Positions 7,454-60,076 of a stretch of DNA of 64,000 bases are shown here, in pieces (positions within the stretch are counted from its first letter, which is position 1; every line of letters starts with the position of its first letter). The notes under the pieces are model-generated. The model worked only from the letters and a program-made list of their open reading frames with translations, was not told the DNA's origin and searched no databases. The position numbers and the translations under genes are program-made. Origin of the DNA: Patescibacteria group bacterium (lineage in GTDB: Bacteria > Patescibacteriota > Patescibacteriia > UBA1558 > GWA2-36-10); assembly GCA_041665545.1 (NCBI GenBank), contig JBAYIQ010000001.1, positions 137,911 to 201,910 on the forward strand, given 5' to 3'.

Positions 7454-8425
7454 ATGGATAATTTTTGGGAAAAACTTAAACCACCCATTCTGACCACCAC
7501 GCCAATGGCGGGAATTACTGACTCGGCCTGGCGCCAACTCTGCAAAAAATGGGGTGCTGATGTGGTTTATACTGAATTCGTGTCGGTCGATGCTCTGTTT
7601 TATGATAGCAAAAAAACCTTGCAAATGCTGGAGTACAAAGCTAGTGAACAGCCAATTGTTGCCCAAATCTTTGGCAAAAGAAGCGATTTGTACCCCAAGG
7701 CCGCTAAACTAATTGAAAAACTCGGTTTTACTGGCGTGGACATAAATTTCGGCTGTCCAGCCAAAAAAGTAGCTGGCCATGGCGGTGGTATATGCCTACT
7801 CCGCGATATGGATACTGTCAAAAAAATAGTAGCCAATACTATTGAAGCAGTGACAATTCCAGTTTCCATAAAAACTAGAATTAGCTTGAATGCTGTGTCT
7901 GGATCTCCAGAAAAGGGAAAAATTACGGCCGTAGATTTATTAGATGCCTTGCAGGATTGTCCCCTAGCCGCGATTATTGTCCATGGACGCACCTATGAAA
8001 CTCCTTTTGCTGGCCCTGTTGACTTAGAAATGTTAAAAAATTTGCGTGAAAAATTCACTAAAGGAATATTTTTAATCAATGGCTCTTTTCAAAGTGTAGA
8101 ATCAGTAGTCAGTGATTTACAATACACCCAAGCTGATGGCATTGCCTTGGCTAGATCGCTCTATGGTAGGCCATGGATATTCAAACAAATCAAAGATTAT
8201 TTATTGACTGGGCAGTATCAAGAAATTACTTGGCCGGAAATAAAAGCTACTGCTATTGAGCATGCTCACCTGCTCTACGAAAATAAAGGGCCAAAAGGTT
8301 TTCAAGAAATGCGTAAACATTTATTATTTTATGCCAAAGGCCATCCTCAGGCCAGCTCACTCCGATACAGTTTGGTAAGAGTAAACACTCCACAAGAAGT
8401 AGAAAAAATATTCTCGGAAATATAA
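7454..8425 (+). CDS. dus: tRNA-dihydrouridine synthase
   Basis: PMAGITDSAWR, INFGCPAKKV, catalytic Cys region GGGICLLRD. Confidence 0.85.
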   Translation: MDNFWEKLKPPILTTTPMAGITDSAWRQLCKKWGADVVYTEFVSVDALFYDSKKTLQMLEYKASEQPIVAQIFGKRSDLYPKAAKLIEKLGFTGVDINFGCPAKKVAGHGGGICLLRDMDTVKKIVANTIEAVTIPVSIKTRISLNAVSGSPEKGKITAVDLLDALQDCPLAAIIVHGRTYETPFAGPVDLEMLKNLREKFTKGIFLINGSFQSVESVVSDLQYTQADGIALARSLYGRPWIFKQIKDYLLTGQYQEITWPEIKATAIEHAHLLYENKGPKGFQEMRKHLLFYAKGHPQASSLRYSLVRVNTPQEVEKIFSEI

Positions 8426-8462
8426 AAAACAGCCCTGCACCGTACGGTGCAGGGCTGTTTTT
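8425..8462. terminator. bidirectional intrinsic terminator (family shared with 2466-2505)
   Basis: A6-CAGCCCTGCACC-GTAC-GGTGCAGGGCTG-T5 between convergent dus and the 1230-aa gene. Confidence 0.75.
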
Positions 8463-8469
8463 ATTTATA

Positions 8470-28192: not shown

Positions 28193-28271
28193 GGTTTATC
28201 GCCCAGAGGGCGACCCCGTCCCGCAACGCGAGATGGCGACACCACTGCTCTACCAATTGAGCCCGCCCGGC
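28193..28271 (-). pseudogene. tRNA-Thr-like 5' fragment with GC-rich hairpin inserted in the anticodon loop
   Basis: GCCGGGCGGGCTCAATTGGTAGAGCAGTGGTGTCG + 38-nt insert (contains TCGCCCTCTGGGCGA hairpin) + TAAACC; no T arm; 22 nt upstream of intact tRNA-Thr. Confidence 0.6.
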
Positions 28272-28322
28272 ACGCCGATGGCGTAGCCATGGCGGAAGGG
28301 CTATCTCGGCCCAAGGCCGTCT

Positions 28323-31721: not shown

Positions 31722-32237
31722 TCAGATACGCTTGATTGATTTCAAAAAAATCCAAGCAATGATGCCACCCAAAAGGGCATTGAGTAATTGCTGATAGCTC
31801 ATCATACTACTAACCAGATTGGCTAGAGAGGTAGTTTTGATTATTTTAGAAACAAGTATACTAGCCAGAGAATAAATAAAAATATATTTAGCAAAACTAG
31901 CCACAGCCACAGCCAGCCAAAAATTTTTTTCTTTGAAATAATTAAAAAATAAGACTAATAAAATATTGCCAATAATAATCACTGGAATCAAGGGCAACAT
32001 GATGGCTGGCAAGAGTCCAGTACTAAAAGCAATCACGCTGGGTAAAAAACAAATTAACAAAGCATTGTTTGCTCCCAACATTATTACCGCAATATACAAC
32101 AAGGCGTTGACCAAAGGGCCAGTGATTTGCTGTAAAGGAAAAAGTGGCAACAAAGCAGCCAAACTCATCATGGCCAAAAGTTGTGTGACTACAACTATTT
32201 TTTTATCACTAATTGCTTCTGCTTTTGCTTCAGCCAT
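31722..32237 (-). CDS. small polytopic membrane protein (function unknown; possibly ECF S-component-like)
   Basis: 5 hydrophobic helices; tightly packed between hydA and MFS genes. Confidence 0.55.
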   Translation of the reverse strand: MAEAKAEAISDKKIVVVTQLLAMMSLAALLPLFPLQQITGPLVNALLYIAVIMLGANNALLICFLPSVIAFSTGLLPAIMLPLIPVIIIGNILLVLFFNYFKEKNFWLAVAVASFAKYIFIYSLASILVSKIIKTTSLANLVSSMMSYQQLLNALLGGIIAWIFLKSIKRI

Positions 32238-50735: not shown

Positions 50736-50836
50736 ACAAAAAAACGCCCTGCAATTTCTGTGGGGTGTTTTTTATTTTAAACAAAATTAAGAACGCGTCC
50801 CCGAAGAAACGCGTTCTGGAAAGAACAGGCCTACTT

Positions 50837-51382: not shown

Positions 51383-51507
51383 CTCGTGTCCCTCGACTCA
51401 CTCCGTTCGCTCGGGACACTCGATTCGCAGGAATGAGAATGGTCGGAGGTGCGATAAAGCACCGTAGACCACGAGTGAGTCTTTTGCAAAGCAAAAGGCG
51501 AATCGAG
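51383..51507 (-). repeat. tRNA-trailer structured element, copy E3 (fused to CCA of tRNA-Lys)
   Basis: 125 nt; near-identical to E1 over the tRNA-proximal ~70 nt; followed by AACCCACUGGGUU+U7 terminator (51347-51372). Confidence 0.7.
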
Positions 51508-55805: not shown

Positions 55806-55834
55806 ATATTAACAAAGATTAGCAATTGTGTCAA
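55806..55834 (-). promoter_or_regulatory. rplU promoter TTGACA-N17-TAATAT
   Basis: tgtcaa 55829-55834, atatta 55806-55811 on plus strand. Confidence 0.5.
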
Positions 55835-55853
55835 TAATACTGAATACACGCCA

Positions 55854-55882
55854 TTGACAAGATATGAAATGTGTGATATAAT
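55854..55882 (+). promoter_or_regulatory. promoter of cassette 5 (TTGACA-N17-TATAAT, TGa extended -10)
   Basis: TTGACA 55854-55859, TATAAT 55877-55882; 5' UTR hairpin CGTGGT/ACCACG. Confidence 0.6.
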
Positions 55883-55958
55883 ATAAAATCGTGGTTAATT
55901 TCTACCACGTGCACCTTAGCAAGACACAAGGTAAATATGGCCAATGGAGGTCCTTGAA

Positions 55959-56693
55959 ATGGAAAAGACCGAAAAGACCGCCTTTGCTGTTCTGCACATG
56001 AGCCGTCACGAATCCAGCTCGCCCCAAGCCAACTATGGCCTGGGAACACTGGGTCCCATGGACTACCGCGGAATCCCGGTTCGCTACCACCCCAATTCCT
56101 TCATGCGTGACTCCGGTTACCGCATGCTGGAAATCCAGCTCCCGAAGAACCAGAACGAAGCGGGAGTCGCGATGGCTGTCATGCACGCAGGTCAGATTCG
56201 GGGAGCCATCAGTTCCCTGCAGGATCAGCTCAACAGTCTGACACCGGAAAAGATCTCCCACTACAACCTGATGATCAACGAACTGCTTCGCAAGGGCTAC
56301 CTGATGCACAGCCAAGTCCTCTACTTCAAACCCTGGCAATCCGGTCTCGTGGCCAAGTACGGCTGGGGCATCAATGGCTCTGGTGGCATGGTCATGTTCG
56401 GACAGAACAACTTCGGACAGAGCTTCGGAGTACAGGCCGGACACCAGCTGGTGCAGGTGGTCTTCCGACCCACTCCGTACGCCGACGGACTGATCTGTCG
56501 CTACGGCTGGGGCATCACCGTATGCCAGCCGGAAAGCATCAAACGTGTGCTGAGTGGTCTGCGCAAGCAGCTCGACAACGCCGTGTTCTTCCAGGAGCAC
56601 GGCTGTCTACTCGAAGACTTCGATCGGCCGAGTCTGGCATGCCGACTGATCGCCCGTCAGGCGACCCACGCGTGCCAGCAAACCACCGCATAG
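55959..56693 (+). CDS. high-GC hypothetical protein (244 aa) with duplicated YGWGI motif
   Basis: GGAGG 8 nt before ATG 55959 (tracked ORF starts 55944); VAKYGWGINGSGG and ICRYGWGITVCQ; no family recognised. Confidence 0.65.
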   Translation: MEKTEKTAFAVLHMSRHESSSPQANYGLGTLGPMDYRGIPVRYHPNSFMRDSGYRMLEIQLPKNQNEAGVAMAVMHAGQIRGAISSLQDQLNSLTPEKISHYNLMINELLRKGYLMHSQVLYFKPWQSGLVAKYGWGINGSGGMVMFGQNNFGQSFGVQAGHQLVQVVFRPTPYADGLICRYGWGITVCQPESIKRVLSGLRKQLDNAVFFQEHGCLLEDFDRPSLACRLIARQATHACQQTTA

Positions 56694-56721
56694 CGAGCAA
56701 CTGCTTGCTACGGTGACAACG

Positions 56722-56768
56722 ACAGGACATTTTCTGACGCCAAGCGTCTGAAGGTGTCCTGTTTTCTT
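56722..56768 (+). terminator. terminator of cassette 5
   Basis: ACAGGACA ... TGTCCTGT stem then TTTTCTT. Confidence 0.7.
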
Positions 56769-56771
56769 ATA

Positions 56772-56800
56772 TTGACAATAGCTATATTATATGCTATAAT
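56772..56800 (+). promoter_or_regulatory. promoter of cassette 6 (TTGACA-N17-TATAAT, TGc extended -10)
   Basis: TTGACA 56772-56777, TATAAT 56795-56800. Confidence 0.6.
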
Positions 56801-56858
56801 ATTAAATGTACCCCAGGATTCTAGTCTCGGGTTGTTCATTTCCAAGGAGGGATTTCTC

Positions 56859-57257
56859 ATGAGTCCGAAACAGCTTGCTGCCATCCCGTTCTGCATTTTG
56901 ACCGTAGTTGCCATGTTCTTATGGGTTGCCGGTCGTCCCACTGGCAAGCCCGACACAACGCGACTCTTCTCAATTGGGACTGATGCCCATCAGGTTCCGT
57001 GTGGTGACATCGGCTACGATGCCACCTTCCGCTACTATGCCGGAAACGACACGGCGGGCGTGACGGTAGCCAATCTCAATCCCGGGCTCGTAACGATCCA
57101 TCTCATGGATCGCCTGAGCAGGGATATCTACGGACGCAAACCCGTGCGGATCAACGGTGATCAGGCCAACCTGGAGATCATCAACAACGCCACCAATGAG
57201 GTGATTTGCCGCTGGCAGATCACCATCGATCGTCAGGTCGGTGTTGCCACCCGCTGA
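56859..57257 (+). CDS. high-GC small membrane-anchored/secreted protein (132 aa)
   Basis: CAAGGAGGGA RBS 7 nt before ATG 56859; N-terminal hydrophobic helix AAIPFCILTVVAMFLWVAG. Confidence 0.65.
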   Translation: MSPKQLAAIPFCILTVVAMFLWVAGRPTGKPDTTRLFSIGTDAHQVPCGDIGYDATFRYYAGNDTAGVTVANLNPGLVTIHLMDRLSRDIYGRKPVRINGDQANLEIINNATNEVICRWQITIDRQVGVATR

Positions 57258-57297
57258 GTACGCCCTCCTCCGGTCAGGCCACAAATGCCCGACCAAA

Positions 57298-57342
57298 ACT
57301 CGTCGTCCATATCTTTTGGATCAAGCGACGAGTTTTCTTTTT
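57298..57342 (+). terminator. terminator of cassette 6
   Basis: ACTCGTCG ... CGACGAGT stem then TTTTCTTTTT. Confidence 0.7.
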
Positions 57343-57399
57343 ACAAAAAAACCACTAAATAAATTAGTGGCTCTATAAACAAATTATTTCTAGATTTAG

Positions 57400-57990
57400 C
57401 TAAGATTTAACTATTATACAACGACCAGTAAAACCGGCCTTAAATTTTTCTAGTTCTATAAATTTATATTGCCAATTATAGTCAGGGATTATAGAAGTAT
57501 GATTAACATAAAACCCTTTTATATTTTCTATATTACCCTCAAATCCTACAATAAGAGCTAAATGGCCTCCAAATCTTTTCCAGAAAAAAATTCTTTCCCT
57601 GAGTGGTTTATAATCTTCGAAAGCCCATTTGATTGAAATAATTGGTAGACAATTTTGCTTTAATGCCTCGCCTAGTTGAACAGAATCTACATTGCACTGG
57701 GTCGTTGCCTGAAAACCATACTCTTGAGCCAAACGAACTAACCCGCCATGACTCCACCCGGAAGAATCTTTATAGGCACCAAACTCAATACCTTTTTTAA
57801 TATATTCTATTATTGATGGTGAAAGGGGTTTAGCTTGCATTGCGAGAAATCCATCTATTGCCATTTTAAGGCACAAAATACCACACGAAGATTTTTCCTA
57901 ATATTCAGCGTCCTTAGAACTCTTAAAACCGAGCTCCTGCCATTTAGACAAATCCCACTTTTGTGAATAAAATGGCACTTCTATTTTCAC
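57400..57990 (-). pseudogene. C39-like cysteine peptidase with an in-frame TAG (57898-57900)
   Basis: GTG 57990: VKIEVPFYSQKWDLSKWQELGFKSSKDAEY*EKSSCGILCLKMAIDGF...; both halves in one frame; stop lies just before the catalytic SCG motif. Confidence 0.6.
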
Positions 57991-58087
57991 GGAATTTATT
58001 TCTTTTCTTATTATATAAAAACTGGCCGTCGCACCTGCCTGTCTGCCGATAGGCGGGCACTTGACCCAATAGCATATATTTACTATC

Positions 58088-58139
58088 GAATGGTCGTAGA
58101 CCACGAGTGAGTCTTTTGCGAAGCAAAAGGCGAATCGAG
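58088..58139 (-). repeat. truncated tRNA-trailer element, copy E4
   Basis: GAATGGTCGTAGACCACGAGTGAGTCTTTTGCGAAGCAAAAGGCGAATCGAG = E1/E3 proximal module with its internal hairpin deleted. Confidence 0.65.
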
Positions 58140-58211
58140 TGGTGGGCATAAGAGGACTTCCGCCTCCGCCCCTCACTTTGTTCGGGGCTATGGCGGACAG
58201 GCGAACCTCTG
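58140..58211 (-). pseudogene. orphan tRNA 3' fragment (T arm + acceptor + CCA) with GC-rich hairpin inserted in the T loop
   Basis: AGAGGTTCG + 42-nt insert (CCTGTCCGCC...GGAGGCGG) + AAGTCCTCT TATGCCCA CCA; no D or anticodon arm upstream. Confidence 0.55.
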
Positions 58212-58224
58212 ATTATTTTAGAAA

Positions 58225-58301
58225 TGGTGGTCGCACCTGGACTCGAACCAGGGACCTTCGCAATGTGAATGCGACGCTCTAACCAACTGAGCCATGCGAC
58301 C
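58225..58301 (-). tRNA. tRNA-Val (anticodon CAC), CCA encoded
   Basis: GGTCGCA/TGCGACC acceptor, loop TTCACAT, T arm CCTGGTTCGAGTCCAGG. Confidence 0.95.
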
Positions 58302-58531
58302 ATATTAATAACCAACTGCTTGTCCGCCAAAGCTCCAAGGGAGCGACGGCGGAAGCTATATGCCCTTAAATAATAAACTACCGAAAATGGCTTAGCCATC
58401 CGTAGCTCCAAATAAAAATAACTATACTTTATACGTTTTGTCATCCTACTCCGCCAGCTGGCGGATATGGATGACATCCTTCGCACCGCGAAGGATGGTA
58501 AAAACCCTTAGCATTCAAAGCTATTTTCTTT

Positions 58532-58606
58532 TGGTGACCTCTAGGGGAATCGAACCCCTGTTGCCAGGATGAGAACCTAGTGTCCTAACCACTAGACGAA
58601 GAGGCC
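58532..58606 (-). tRNA. tRNA-Glu (anticodon CTC), CCA encoded
   Basis: GGCCTCT/AGAGGTC acceptor, loop TTCTCAT, T arm AGGGGTTCGATTCCCCT; flanked by 15-nt inverted repeat (58517-58531 / 58613-58628). Confidence 0.9.
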
Positions 58607-58637
58607 AGAACCAAAAGAAAATAGCTTTTAGAATAAA

Positions 58638-58747
58638 GGTTGCCTGCCCGCCGAAGCTTTGAGCGTAGCGAGGAGCGAAGGCGGGAGAACCTGATGTCCT
58701 AACCGCTCGCCTCGCTTCGCGAGCGAAGCGGGTTAGACGATGGGGCC
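58638..58747 (-). pseudogene. tRNA-Glu-like 5' fragment with GC-rich hairpins in D loop and after the anticodon
   Basis: GGCCCCATCGTCTAAC + 27-nt insert + GGTTAGGACATCAGGTTCTC + 38-nt insert + CAGGCAACC; no T arm; TTGACT-N17-TTTAAT promoter just upstream (about 58760-58790). Confidence 0.6.
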
Positions 58748-58795
58748 AAAACACTGGATATTAAATCAAAAATTTAGCTAAAAGTCAAAGTTATA

Positions 58796-60076
58796 CTATT
58801 TTTTCACAGACCCCACCAAATATTCCCCTGCCTCCCAAGGTCGAGCCATAAGTTCATAAACTATCTGCTCCATTTTCATGCCCCGTGAACCTTTGACCAA
58901 AATAACATCACCAATCTTTATCCTCTCTTGCAAAAAAATACCAGCTTCAAGGGTTTTGGGAAAATGAAAAATTTTATCTTCACTCAGGCCGGCCTGTATA
59001 GCGCCTCTAGCAATGTCCCTGGATCGCTCACCAACGACAAACAAATAATCTATTTTCAAATCATAAACCATTTTGCCAACCCTTCGGTGATCATTTTCAC
59101 TCTCAGCGCCTAGCTCCAGCATATCGCCAAAAACAGCAATTTTTCTACCCTGACTGGGTAACTCGCTTAAGATTTGCAAAGCCACCTTGGAAGACTGCGG
59201 AGAAGAATTGTAGCTATCATCAATCAACCAGCTATTTTTCACACCAGGCAAAAGCTTGGTGCGCCCTGACGCTGACTGATAATTTTGAATATTTTCCGCT
59301 GTCTCTACTAGGTTGAGACCCATAACCAGAGCCACTGTACAGGCAGAAGCTGCGGCTAGAGCATGCTGACTGCCTAAAACATTTGGCAAAAACACTGGCA
59401 ATTCTGCGCCTTGATAATGTATCTTGAAATTGGTGCCATATGTTTCATCATGGAAAGTAAGATGTATATTAGAAATTTTGACATCACAAGTATCGCTCAA
59501 ACCAAATGTTTTGACTGGTGCTGGGCTATTTTTTTTCAAACTTTGTAAAAATGGATCGTCGCCATTGAAGATTATCCAATCATGACTGCCCAGACGCTTA
59601 GTAATACTAATTTTTTCTTTGGCAATATTTTCTATTGAACCAAAATATTCCAAGTGACTTTGGCCGATAGCAGTAATGACGGCAATGTTTGGCTTAGCCA
59701 AACTAGTCAAATATTGTATATCTTGCGGCCGGTCAGCGCCCATTTCCAAAATCAATACTTGTGGATATTTTTTATTCTTAAACAAAAGCAAACGCCAGGC
59801 CTTAAAAATTATACTAAGCCAAGAAAAAATATTCTTGCCACCGCTCTTAGCCGAACCCAAAATAGCCAAGGGCAAACCCAATTCATTGTTAAAATTTTTA
59901 GCGCTACGCCCCACTTTATATTTATTTTTTAAAACCGCAAAAACTGCCTCTTTAGCTGAGGTTTTGCCCACAGAGCCGGTAATACCAATAATACGCGGCT
60001 GGTATTTTTTAATTACTGCCTTGATTAATGGCTTCAAAAGCCAAGAAATAAACTTACGATACTGTCTTTTGTTCAT
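58796..60076 (-). CDS. murF: UDP-MurNAc-tripeptide--D-Ala-D-Ala ligase
   Basis: GITGSVGKTSAKE, Mur ligase middle and C-terminal domains; dcw context. Confidence 0.85.
   Translation of the reverse strand: MNKRQYRKFISWLLKPLIKAVIKKYQPRIIGITGSVGKTSAKEAVFAVLKNKYKVGRSAKNFNNELGLPLAILGSAKSGGKNIFSWLSIIFKAWRLLLFKNKKYPQVLILEMGADRPQDIQYLTSLAKPNIAVITAIGQSHLEYFGSIENIAKEKISITKRLGSHDWIIFNGDDPFLQSLKKNSPAPVKTFGLSDTCDVKISNIHLTFHDETYGTNFKIHYQGAELPVFLPNVLGSQHALAAASACTVALVMGLNLVETAENIQNYQSASGRTKLLPGVKNSWLIDDSYNSSPQSSKVALQILSELPSQGRKIAVFGDMLELGAESENDHRRVGKMVYDLKIDYLFVVGERSRDIARGAIQAGLSEDKIFHFPKTLEAGIFLQERIKIGDVILVKGSRGMKMEQIVYELMARPWEAGEYLVGSVKK

Follow-up and report, generated by a model that had tools for sequence, protein, structure and literature searches.

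Williams, in 2002, is said to have described fragments of tRNA genes at the integration sites of prophages and genomic islands, together with the attL/attR duplications found there, and the anticodon stem-loop is a classical crossover site of integrases that target tRNA genes. Mobile endonuclease open reading frames (ORFs) with terminal gene duplications, as well as GC-rich double-hairpin elements, are reportedly known from fungal mitochondria (Allomyces) through the work of Paquin, Laforest and Lang, and Kienbeck et al. reportedly found in 2024 that 'theta' ribozymes, which are hepatitis delta virus (HDV)-like, lie directly 3' of tRNAs. SegB, a GIY-YIG homing endonuclease encoded in the tRNA gene cluster of phages T4 and T6, recognises T-psi-C stem-loop DNA and causes the tRNA region to be inherited preferentially (PMC2330249), it also amplifies tRNA-Tyr segments (PMC13096335), and group I introns in the anticodon loops of Patescibacteria tRNA genes hide these genes from annotation tools (PMC13011429). 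This intron paper and the SegB papers were all that literature searches on tRNA-trailer repeats, hairpin inserts in tRNA genes and small GIY-YIG genes next to tRNAs in Patescibacteria returned. Here we compare these systems with a locus in a 64,000-nucleotide stretch from a Patescibacteria group bacterium (contig JBAYIQ010000001.1, positions 137,911 to 201,910; 'the window'), where a tRNA 3' remnant, the stub, is followed directly by a truncated copy of a repeated trailer element that we call E.

The stub is likely to represent what is left, at the 3' side, of a resident tRNA gene (X) that carried E, was split in place and later decayed. The analysis draws on compared loci from related genomes and metagenomes (L-numbers), with relatedness to the window given as identity of the MurF-type ligase encoded beside the tRNA cluster (L004, 93%; L005, 93%; L011, 79%; L012, 78%; L021, 64%), and the ligase has relatives labelled Candidatus Komeilibacteria or Parcubacteria. 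The stub, both halves of X, the adjacent tRNA-Val and tRNA-Glu' genes and E all lie on the minus strand. The arrangement is no assembly artefact, since the 901 nt from 57900 to 58800 are 100% identical across the JGI, ENA and Logan assemblies of the same organism.

On the minus strand the stub (58210-58140) reads AGAGG-TTCG, a 42-nt insert (CCTGTCCGCC...GGAGGCGG, 58201-58160) and then AAGT-CCTCT-TATGCCC-A-CCA, so that it comprises a T arm, a 3' acceptor strand, a discriminator A and CCA. In the predicted fold (-29.7 kcal/mol, z = -2.3) the 5-bp T stem AGAGG/CCTCT encloses a GC hairpin, and once the insert is removed the T loop becomes TTCGAGT (or TTCAAGT), the former being identical to the T loop of the neighbouring tRNA-Val. 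A 5-bp stem, a T loop of the form TTCRANY, a 7-nt acceptor strand, a discriminator and CCA are thus all present, as in the 3' half of a tRNA. An earlier note on this DNA had proposed a T arm, acceptor strand and CCA with a 42-nt GC hairpin inserted in the T loop; both parts of that description are borne out, with the spacing, the T-loop residues and the partner strand described below in agreement and the T-loop consensus restored by removal of the insert. An 18-mer from the stub, GTCCTCTTATGCCCACCA, occurs once in the window against 0.02 expected, and no second copy of the stub is found there.

Neither ARAGORN nor Rfam calls a tRNA at 58140-58211 or at 58309-58365, and a complete cloverleaf is absent, as expected of a mere fragment. 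Rfam was scanned over the whole window at gathering thresholds and over 57900-58800 and 19480-19990 at an E-value <= 10, and these scans reported six tRNAs plus noise and nothing more; ARAGORN likewise reported six tRNAs. A transfer-messenger RNA (tmRNA) or its tRNA-like domain was rejected as an identity for the stub, given the pair G3:C70 rather than G3:U70 and the lack of an ARAGORN or Rfam tmRNA call in the window; the sole match of this type is a weak permuted-tmRNA hit elsewhere, at 16 bits against a gathering score of 47. The spacer between tRNA-Val and the stub, TTTCTAAAATAATC (58211..58224), resembles AGATCAAAATAATATCT, which precedes a stub in L014. It was also considered as a repeated spacer and rejected, its other exact copy, at 31839, lying within a coding region and being compatible with chance.

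The earlier note had called the stub an orphan, and this does not hold, as a complementary 5' acceptor strand, U8-A9, a D-stem strand and a D loop lie in cis at 58365-58309. The sequence GGGCATA at 58365-58359, 149 nt upstream of TATGCCC in the stub, is complementary to it at 7/7 positions. The 5' remnant corresponds to tRNA positions 1-22 and reads GGGCATA-TA-GCT, a 35-nt GC hairpin (58318-58352) and CAAGC-AGTTGGTTA; between it and tRNA-Val stands TTAATAT (58302-58308). The locus therefore has the order X 5' half, TTAATAT, tRNA-Val, TTTCTAAAATAATC, X 3' half and E, so that a split tRNA gene surrounds tRNA-Val. At this locus X has lost its anticodon arm and the 3' strand of its D stem, and a search for the anticodon arm in L004 (GAGCACTAATTGGCAG...) and in the spacer of the window gave no convincing stem-loop.

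The enclosed tRNA-Val(CAC) is intact (58225..58301; ARAGORN; 71.6 bits in Rfam), has orthologues in L004, L005, L011, L012 and L021, and adjoins tRNA-Glu' in all relatives. Copies of the X 5' half occur at the same position in two of these loci, as GGGCATATAGCTCAGTTGGTTA, a hairpin and GAGC.. immediately upstream of tRNA-Val in L004 and as GGGCACATAGCTCAGTTGGTTA-TTAATATAT-Val in L012; both lack the X 3' half, and L005, L011 and L021 have neither half. A consensus scan placed a promoter-like site upstream of the X 5' half (58415..58444, minus strand) and found no terminator-like site between it and the end of E, which faintly suggests that the X remnant may merely be co-transcribed with tRNA-Val.

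A 26-mer from the 5' half, GGGCAYATAGCTCAGTTGGTTAGAGC, retrieved only Ile-family tRNAs (GAT/TAT/CAT) from viral contigs, with the acceptor strand TATGCCC or TTTGCCC and, in 7/8 of them, discriminator A73. These tRNAs share the acceptor strand and the T loop of the stub, and X was therefore probably an Ile-like tRNA; its anticodon arm is gone, and the assignment follows likeness to unrelated phage tRNAs.

The copy of E attached to the stub begins at 58139, directly after CCA, as CTCGATTCGCC..., and the junction CCA-CTCGATTCG (58142-58131) has the expected start YTCGAYTC. By alignment to the copies behind tRNA-Thr and tRNA-Lys, its 5' part (58086..58139) contains the 5' strand of a closing helix (P1), hairpin Pa (CTTTTGC/GCAAAAG), the box TCACTCGTGGTC and helix Pb without the distal GGTGC hairpin, so that Pa, the box YCNCTCRYGRTY and the proximal Pb helix are kept. 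It belongs to type A: the first 43 nt match the Thr and Lys copies at 42-43/43 positions, a clean 19-nt deletion follows, and CGACCATTCGA is then retained. Its 5' 54 nt share ~98% identity with copies that lie 6.6 and 38 kb off, which indicates that copying or gene conversion of E does occur. Further 3', an AT palindrome (58069-58085) and a degenerate P1 3' strand, TGGGTCAAGTG (58058-58068; 7/11 relative to CGAATCGAGTG), form a decayed E 3' part (58058..58085), and by fold and alignment a different GC hairpin (58022..58057) occupies the slot in which full copies have TGYCCYGAGCGAA..GGRCA ('module 2'); the distal Pb hairpin and module 2 itself are absent. The earlier note's view that the copy lacks its internal GGUGC hairpin is thus correct, as is its description as truncated insofar as this hairpin is lost; the proposed end at 58088 is not, because decayed E sequence extends to ~58058 and the tail hairpin to 58022. 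Mini forms without the GGTGC hairpin also occur in L004 and L007. A possible Val 3' remnant behind E (CAGGTGCGAC, ~58037-58028) was rejected as a 10-nt match with an E-value of 3.2, better read as part of the GC hairpin.

Copies of E were gathered from the window, its relatives and six metagenome loci, and comparing their junctions bears out the conserved link to CCA that the earlier note had seen: in ~200 kb of non-redundant sequence, each of the E cores (18/18) joins CCA to YTCGAYT. The minimal core, as in L007 and L004, is YTCGAYT..TCNCTCRTGGYC-loop-GRCCAT, to which fuller forms add hairpin Pa and the distal Pb hairpin, then a closing strand paired with the 5' end of E, and module 2 behind it. 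In the window, full copies follow tRNA-Thr(GGT), tRNA-Tyr and tRNA-Lys (19574-19663, 19789-19879 and 51417-51507, all minus strand), each with a module 2 hairpin (TGYCCYGAGCGAA..GAGTCGARGGRCAYGAG) behind it. RNAalifold predicts a three-way junction in which the closing helix P1 takes in C75 and A76 of the tRNA and from which Pa and Pb emerge, with compensatory double changes at 11/23 pairs. In this consensus 94.5% of cells are paired, as opposed to 82.3% after shuffling and 35-45% when the partners are slid, and 47 cells hold double changes against 15 expected, a number reached in 0/500 shuffles. E is therefore a real covarying structure tied to CCA. Its G.U pairs lie on the strand that has the sense of the tRNA, which fits structure in RNA or in the sense single strand.

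There are at least four subfamilies of E, and from one relative to another the same tRNA position may have a copy of a different subfamily or lack E altogether; in L021, for example, a plain terminator follows tRNA-Val. Such differences at orthologous positions, combined with near-identity of the copies within one genome, point to turnover or gene conversion. Two scans of viral contigs found no E, and no Rfam family matched it, whether in the window at gathering thresholds or in the stub E and full copies at an E-value <= 10. HDV-like/theta, hatchet, hammerhead, twister and pistol ribozymes were considered and rejected, with no match at an E-value <= 10 and with E forming a three-way junction, not a nested double pseudoknot. 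In regard to the criteria for MITEs (miniature inverted-repeat transposable elements), E has inverted ends of 9-11 bp and subfamilies; it lacks a target-site duplication and is confined to sites behind CCA.

Two other features of the trailers deserve mention. One arm of module 2, GAGTCGAAGG, is the complement of the first bases of E, which suggests that E and module 2 may share a palindromic ancestry. In addition, several trailers that are not E contain a hairpin whose stem starts from C75-A76 and closes with TG (L013 4036-4070, L016 3140-3165, L031 2640-2662 and window 58476-58496), with the sequences CA-TCCTTCGC..GCGAAGGA-TG and CCATAAACC..GGTTTATGG as examples; it may be common practice in these genomes for the trailer to pair with the CCA end.

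The neighbour of X displays the same splitting phenomenon with a known progenitor. A resident tRNA-Glu' gene, intact in L005, L006, L011, L012 and L021, is reduced in the window to positions 1-41 (58637..58747, identified by BLAST), and GC hairpins interrupt its D loop (58704-58731) and its anticodon loop (58642-58684). Inserted into it is a cassette (58517..58628, minus strand) that contains an intact tRNA-Glu(CTC) (58532-58606) and ends in a perfect 19-bp inverted repeat, AAAGCTATTTTCTTTTGGT / ACCAAAAGAAAATAGCTTT, at 58628-58610 and 58535-58517. The same cassette is present in L004, where the 3' part of Glu' survives downstream with a hairpin in the T loop, CCA and a mini-E, so that in both the window and L004 Glu' is split round a Glu gene flanked by inverted repeats. 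This leader-trailer repeat takes in the ACCA end of tRNA-Glu(CTC), is conserved in L004, and has the look either of a processing stem of the RNase III type or of terminal repeats on a cassette that carries a tRNA.

Split or nested tRNA genes occur at Glu, Tyr, Thr, Ala, Arg and Leu loci of the window and of related, Komeilibacteria-like Patescibacteria. In the window, a 5' fragment of a diverged Thr-cgt gene (28193-28310, minus strand; acceptor GCCGAGA, as against GCCACCC in the intact gene) has GC hairpins in its D region and anticodon loop, ends at position 41 and lies 22 nt upstream of the intact tRNA-Thr(CGT); the ORF called upstream runs into this fragment with its end. A second tRNA-Tyr allele, Tyr-B, is likewise present as a 5' fragment to position 41 (20234-20330, minus strand), in which 20 nt are inserted behind GGGT and a GC hairpin separates anticodon positions 34 and 35. 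The break point is position 41 in the three 5' fragments of the window (Glu', Thr-cgt and Tyr; 3/3), with hairpins between positions 34 and 38. A 5' fragment accompanies an intact copy of the same tRNA also for Thr-ggt and Tyr in L033, Ala-tgc in L014 and Ala-ggc in L013. At the other end of the gene, a stub with E lies behind an intact tRNA that lacks E in L004 (Glu'), L014 (Leu-gag locus) and L018 (Arg-cct), and the L014 stub has its T-loop hairpin in the same place as the stub of the window.

At several loci, Tyr among them, a tiny nuclease gene stands between the fragment and the intact tRNA. The order in the window (19983-20330 and on, minus strand) is Tyr-B 5' fragment, an 80-aa GIY-YIG ORF (19983-20222; PF01541, E-value 2.7e-12) and intact Tyr-A. 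L031 has the reciprocal order, namely a Tyr-A 5' fragment, an 80-aa GIY-YIG ORF, intact Tyr-B, two partial copies and a Tyr-A 3' end with T-loop hairpins, and there the spacer plus the Tyr 3' part is present in two tandem copies. Homologues of 79-84 aa lie directly upstream of tRNA-Tyr in five related loci, a second ORF overlaps the start of tRNA-Thr-ggt, two more lie next to the tRNA cluster of L013, and the homologues otherwise always abut tRNA-Tyr or tRNA-Thr. The ORF of the window is 38 kb from the stub.

The hairpin in the T loop of X belongs to a family, CCGCC...GGCGGRCARGC, that a regular-expression survey found three times in the window, each time in a loop of a tRNA fragment: the T loop of X (58160..58202, plus strand, opposite to the tRNA), the D loop of X and the anticodon loop of Glu'. 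The same family occupies D loops of fragments in L033, L034 and L038, and no otherwise complete tRNA carrying it was seen among the surveyed loci. Since the inserts are confined to fragments, they look like colonisers, or repair scars, of disabled tRNA copies. Hairpins are also nested within the loops of other hairpins, for instance at 58475-58440 and in the Pb loop of E. A group I intron was rejected as an explanation for the inserts, which are 28-43 nt long against a core of at least ~200 nt (P3-P9), reside in fragments and coincide with no Rfam intron match in the window.

The history of the site can be followed in part among the relatives. Glu' stands directly before Val in L021 (64%), L011 (79%) and L005 (93%), and this order is therefore taken as ancestral; L012, L004 and the window are in an expanded state, with E and the X 5' half between Glu' and Val. 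Compact and expanded states are intermixed among close relatives, which indicates recurrent events or allelic replacement by recombination. In L004, L011 and L012 the CCA of Val joins E directly, with no stub, so the choice is left between two routes: either Val with short flanks was placed into the X-E gene, or X-derived pieces were laid on both sides of Val.

Downstream, the site is unstable. The segment from tRNA-Val to rplU differs in every relative and is often GC-rich; in the window, the segment between the tRNA cluster and rplU (55830-57876) has a GC content of ~0.48 versus 0.39 and is probably a remnant of integrated foreign DNA. It opens with a C39-like peptidase gene (57400-57876) that lacks ~40 N-terminal residues and thereby places a rearrangement breakpoint <= ~150 nt from the decayed end of E. 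Full-length homologues of this gene follow ddl and, once, in L039, lie beside a large serine recombinase. No second X repeat that bounds the variable segment was found.

The splitting of X in place would proceed as follows. X would once have had E as its trailer, like the majority of tRNA genes in the lineage, and would have been divided into a 5' piece (positions 1-22) before tRNA-Val and a 3' piece (T arm to CCA, plus E) behind it. Splitting may occur through insertion or recombination of cassettes that bring an intact tRNA and, at Tyr and Thr loci, also the tiny GIY-YIG gene, by analogy with the turnover of tRNA regions that homing endonucleases drive. Once X was non-functional, its loops would have been colonised by the CCGCC..GGCGGRCARGC hairpin, once in the D loop and once in the T loop, and the stub's E would have lost its distal hairpin while its 3' closing strand decayed. 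The junction of CCA with E would then be kept through descent in place, not through movement of the stub with E. We infer that E acts in RNA, where as a structure of the 3' trailer it would pair with C75-A76 and so mark the tRNA 3' end or protect it, and that the X remnant would be non-functional and only co-transcribed with tRNA-Val.

Several observations weigh against a split in place. The Val-Glu' order is ancestral, and a resident Val inside another tRNA gene is hard to explain on that basis. X and Val differ in isotype, and in the other nested cases the isotype is the same. The window could equally have gained the 85 nt of spacer and stub (58140-58224) precisely at the junction of CCA with E, and ~98% likeness of the E 5' half to distant copies is not what one would expect of an old pseudogene appendage if neither gene conversion nor recent copying were at work. 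An intact X was not found in related bacteria, and in the viral-contig scans the 5' 26-mer hit only tRNA-Ile genes of unrelated phages while a 3' 23-mer had no match; the label 'Ile-like' draws on similarity to those phage genes. Finally, no GIY-YIG or recombinase gene lies next to the Val/X locus.

The earlier note had inferred from the preserved junction that E and the tRNA 3' end move or are duplicated as a unit. A mobile or copy-paste unit of this kind, placed between the CCA of Val and E by E-anchored ectopic gene conversion or read-through copying, for example, would account for the 85-nt insertion right at the junction relative to L004, L011 and L012, for the E 5' 54 nt that are nearly identical to copies 6.6 and 38 kb off, for the tandem partial tRNA 3' copies with flanks in L031 and for the recurrence of stub plus E in L014 and L018. 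It leaves unexplained the X 5' half just upstream of Val, which L004 and L012 share; the window has no second stub, target-site duplications are lacking, each of the L004 and L018 stubs matches the intact gene beside it in tRNA type, and the Glu' stub derives from a known resident gene. We thus regard this explanation as unlikely and splitting in place as the simpler account: copying with flanks, to judge from the tandem Tyr 3' copies of L031 and the ~98% identity of E, is a part of the proposal that can stand, whereas a stub that moves with E is not needed. An integrase-mediated integration scar, with the X fragments as att remnants of a genomic island and the variable segment as its leftover, is decidedly unlikely. 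The divergent, often GC-rich segment after Val/E, the truncated C39-like gene whose full-length homologue lies beside a large serine recombinase in L039, and fragments that start or end around the anticodon stem-loop would all suit such a scar, but no integrase or recombinase domain is encoded in the neighbouring ORFs scanned, the stub does not repeat the 3' end of the adjacent Val (the T stem and acceptor differ), the far side has no second X repeat, and fragments and intact genes are only 7-150 nt apart.

The same X halves could instead form a functional RNA, in which the X acceptor and T arm fold round tRNA-Val as a processing scaffold or make up a CCA-ended, tRNA-like minihelix. The 7/7 acceptor complementarity and the intact 5-bp T stem have survived the loss of the middle of the gene, a promoter-like site precedes the X 5' half with no terminator ahead of E, and the neighbouring tRNA-Glu is enclosed by a perfect leader-trailer helix. 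Against these points, the pairing is not conserved, with the X 5' half alone in L004 and L012 and neither half in L005, L011 and L021, both loops hold 35-43-nt inserts of a repeat family, and the closing helix of E is decayed; we consider such a function very improbable. Chance likeness to a T arm, for which one could cite the hairpin-rich intergenic DNA and the silence of ARAGORN and Rfam, is effectively refuted by the correct spacing of T stem, T-loop residues, acceptor strand, A73 and CCA, by the perfect partner in a tRNA 5' context, by homologous X 5' pieces in two relatives and by analogous stubs elsewhere that come from known intact genes.

A wider and more tentative proposal, possible but doubtful in our judgement, is that the nuclease cassettes, the GC hairpin and E constitute an undescribed three-part selfish system on tRNA genes in a Komeilibacteria-like clade of Patescibacteria. 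GIY-YIG nucleases that consist of the domain only would travel with replacement tRNA cassettes and split the residents at one constant site, position 41/42 of the anticodon stem. The 35-45-nt hairpin would insert into single-stranded loops of the disabled copies, as a scar of break repair or as an 'immunising' disruption of the loop that the nuclease recognises. E, a structured RNA specific to tRNA 3' ends and paired with C75-A76, would define the mature CCA end where RNases are few and double as a homology anchor that carries tRNA 3' ends with it when loci recombine. E may have descended from stacked tRNA 3' remnants, as it opens with 9 nt that correspond to a T loop and a T-stem strand, and an internal junction GACCA-TTCGA occurs within it.

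By itself the stub is a pseudogene fragment, and its value lies in giving entry to a pattern of serially split and replaced tRNA genes in an ultra-small, genome-reduced bacterium of the candidate phyla radiation (CPR), where intact genes are nested in the wreckage of older ones and a conserved structured trailer, E, follows most tRNAs and pairs with their CCA end. Should E be a processing signal, it would bear on how tRNA 3' ends are made in Patescibacteria, which have few RNases. Loci of this type also break assemblies, with contigs of several relatives ending there, and hide or mimic tRNA genes in annotation. The contigs of L005, L006, L019 and L020 end inside or just past the Glu'/Val tRNA cluster, consistent with E, hairpins and partial tRNA copies acting as repeats that break short-read assemblies.

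Other hairpins are present elsewhere in the window. Further GC-rich hairpins are numerous in this AT-rich genome (1245-1290, 26025-26093, 30489-30531, 32715-32764, 34220-34257, 35042-35094 and 37329-37461); they do not match the CCGCC..GGCGGRCARGC expression, and some lie inside ORF calls, where they could be in-frame inserts or signs of mis-called starts. A terminator-like hairpin, AAAAACAGCCC(C/T)GCACCGTA(T/C)GGTG..GGGCTGTTTTT, occurs three times at gene ends (2466-2510, 8425-8469 and 50739-50783) and is a shared intrinsic-terminator module.

Nested tRNA genes, loop-seeking hairpins, GIY-YIG genes that abut tRNA genes and a CCA-linked trailer appear to be undescribed in Rfam and in the literature searched. 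As at att sites, an intact tRNA gene has a partial copy nearby, breaks fall at the anticodon stem-loop or T loop, and the locus is a hot spot with a variable flank. Unlike att-site fragments, those found here are 7-150 nt rather than kilobases apart, comprise both 5' and 3' pieces, can enclose a complete gene that differs in sequence or isotype, and carry hairpins in their loops; furthermore, the stub differs from the Val 3' end, has no second copy, and has no integrase among the neighbouring ORFs scanned, as an att-site duplication would require. E and the GC hairpins resemble REP/BIME, Correia and RPE elements and MITEs in being short, multi-copy, hairpin-forming, nested and divided into subfamilies, as do the 9-11-bp inverted ends of E. 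They differ in that E follows CCA in 18/18 cases, forms a helix that includes C75-A76, lacks target-site duplications and has no transposase identified with it, and the covariation and sense-strand G.U pairs of E suggest constraint at the level of RNA.

Like the theta ribozymes, E is a structured element right after the tRNA 3' end, which suggests a role in 3'-end formation, but it lacks an Rfam match and forms a three-way junction in which the 5' and 3' ends of E itself make up the closing helix. The group I introns share with this locus the phylum and the insertion into tRNA genes, whereas here hairpins of 28-43 nt reside in the D, anticodon and T loops of fragments only. The fungal mitochondrial genomes are similarly AT-rich with short GC hairpins, and in them, too, an old gene end, displaced there by inserted endonuclease ORFs, persists as a fragment beside a restored gene; the present case differs in its bacterial host, in having tRNA genes as targets and hairpins in the loops of tRNA fragments, and in the absence of any sequence relationship. 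Among phage systems, SegB offers the parallel of a GIY-YIG gene among tRNA genes, which here abuts partially duplicated tRNA-Tyr and tRNA-Thr, but the ORFs of this lineage have 79-84 aa, encode a catalytic domain with no DNA-binding domain, belong to a cellular genome and are missing beside Val/X. Taken together, the GIY-YIG ORFs, the fixed break point and the duplicated flanks resemble both the gene-end duplications of homing endonucleases and SegB, as an analogy and with no claim of membership; if the GIY-YIG/tRNA cassettes are homing units, they would represent a cellular counterpart of the SegB-driven turnover of tRNA regions in phages.

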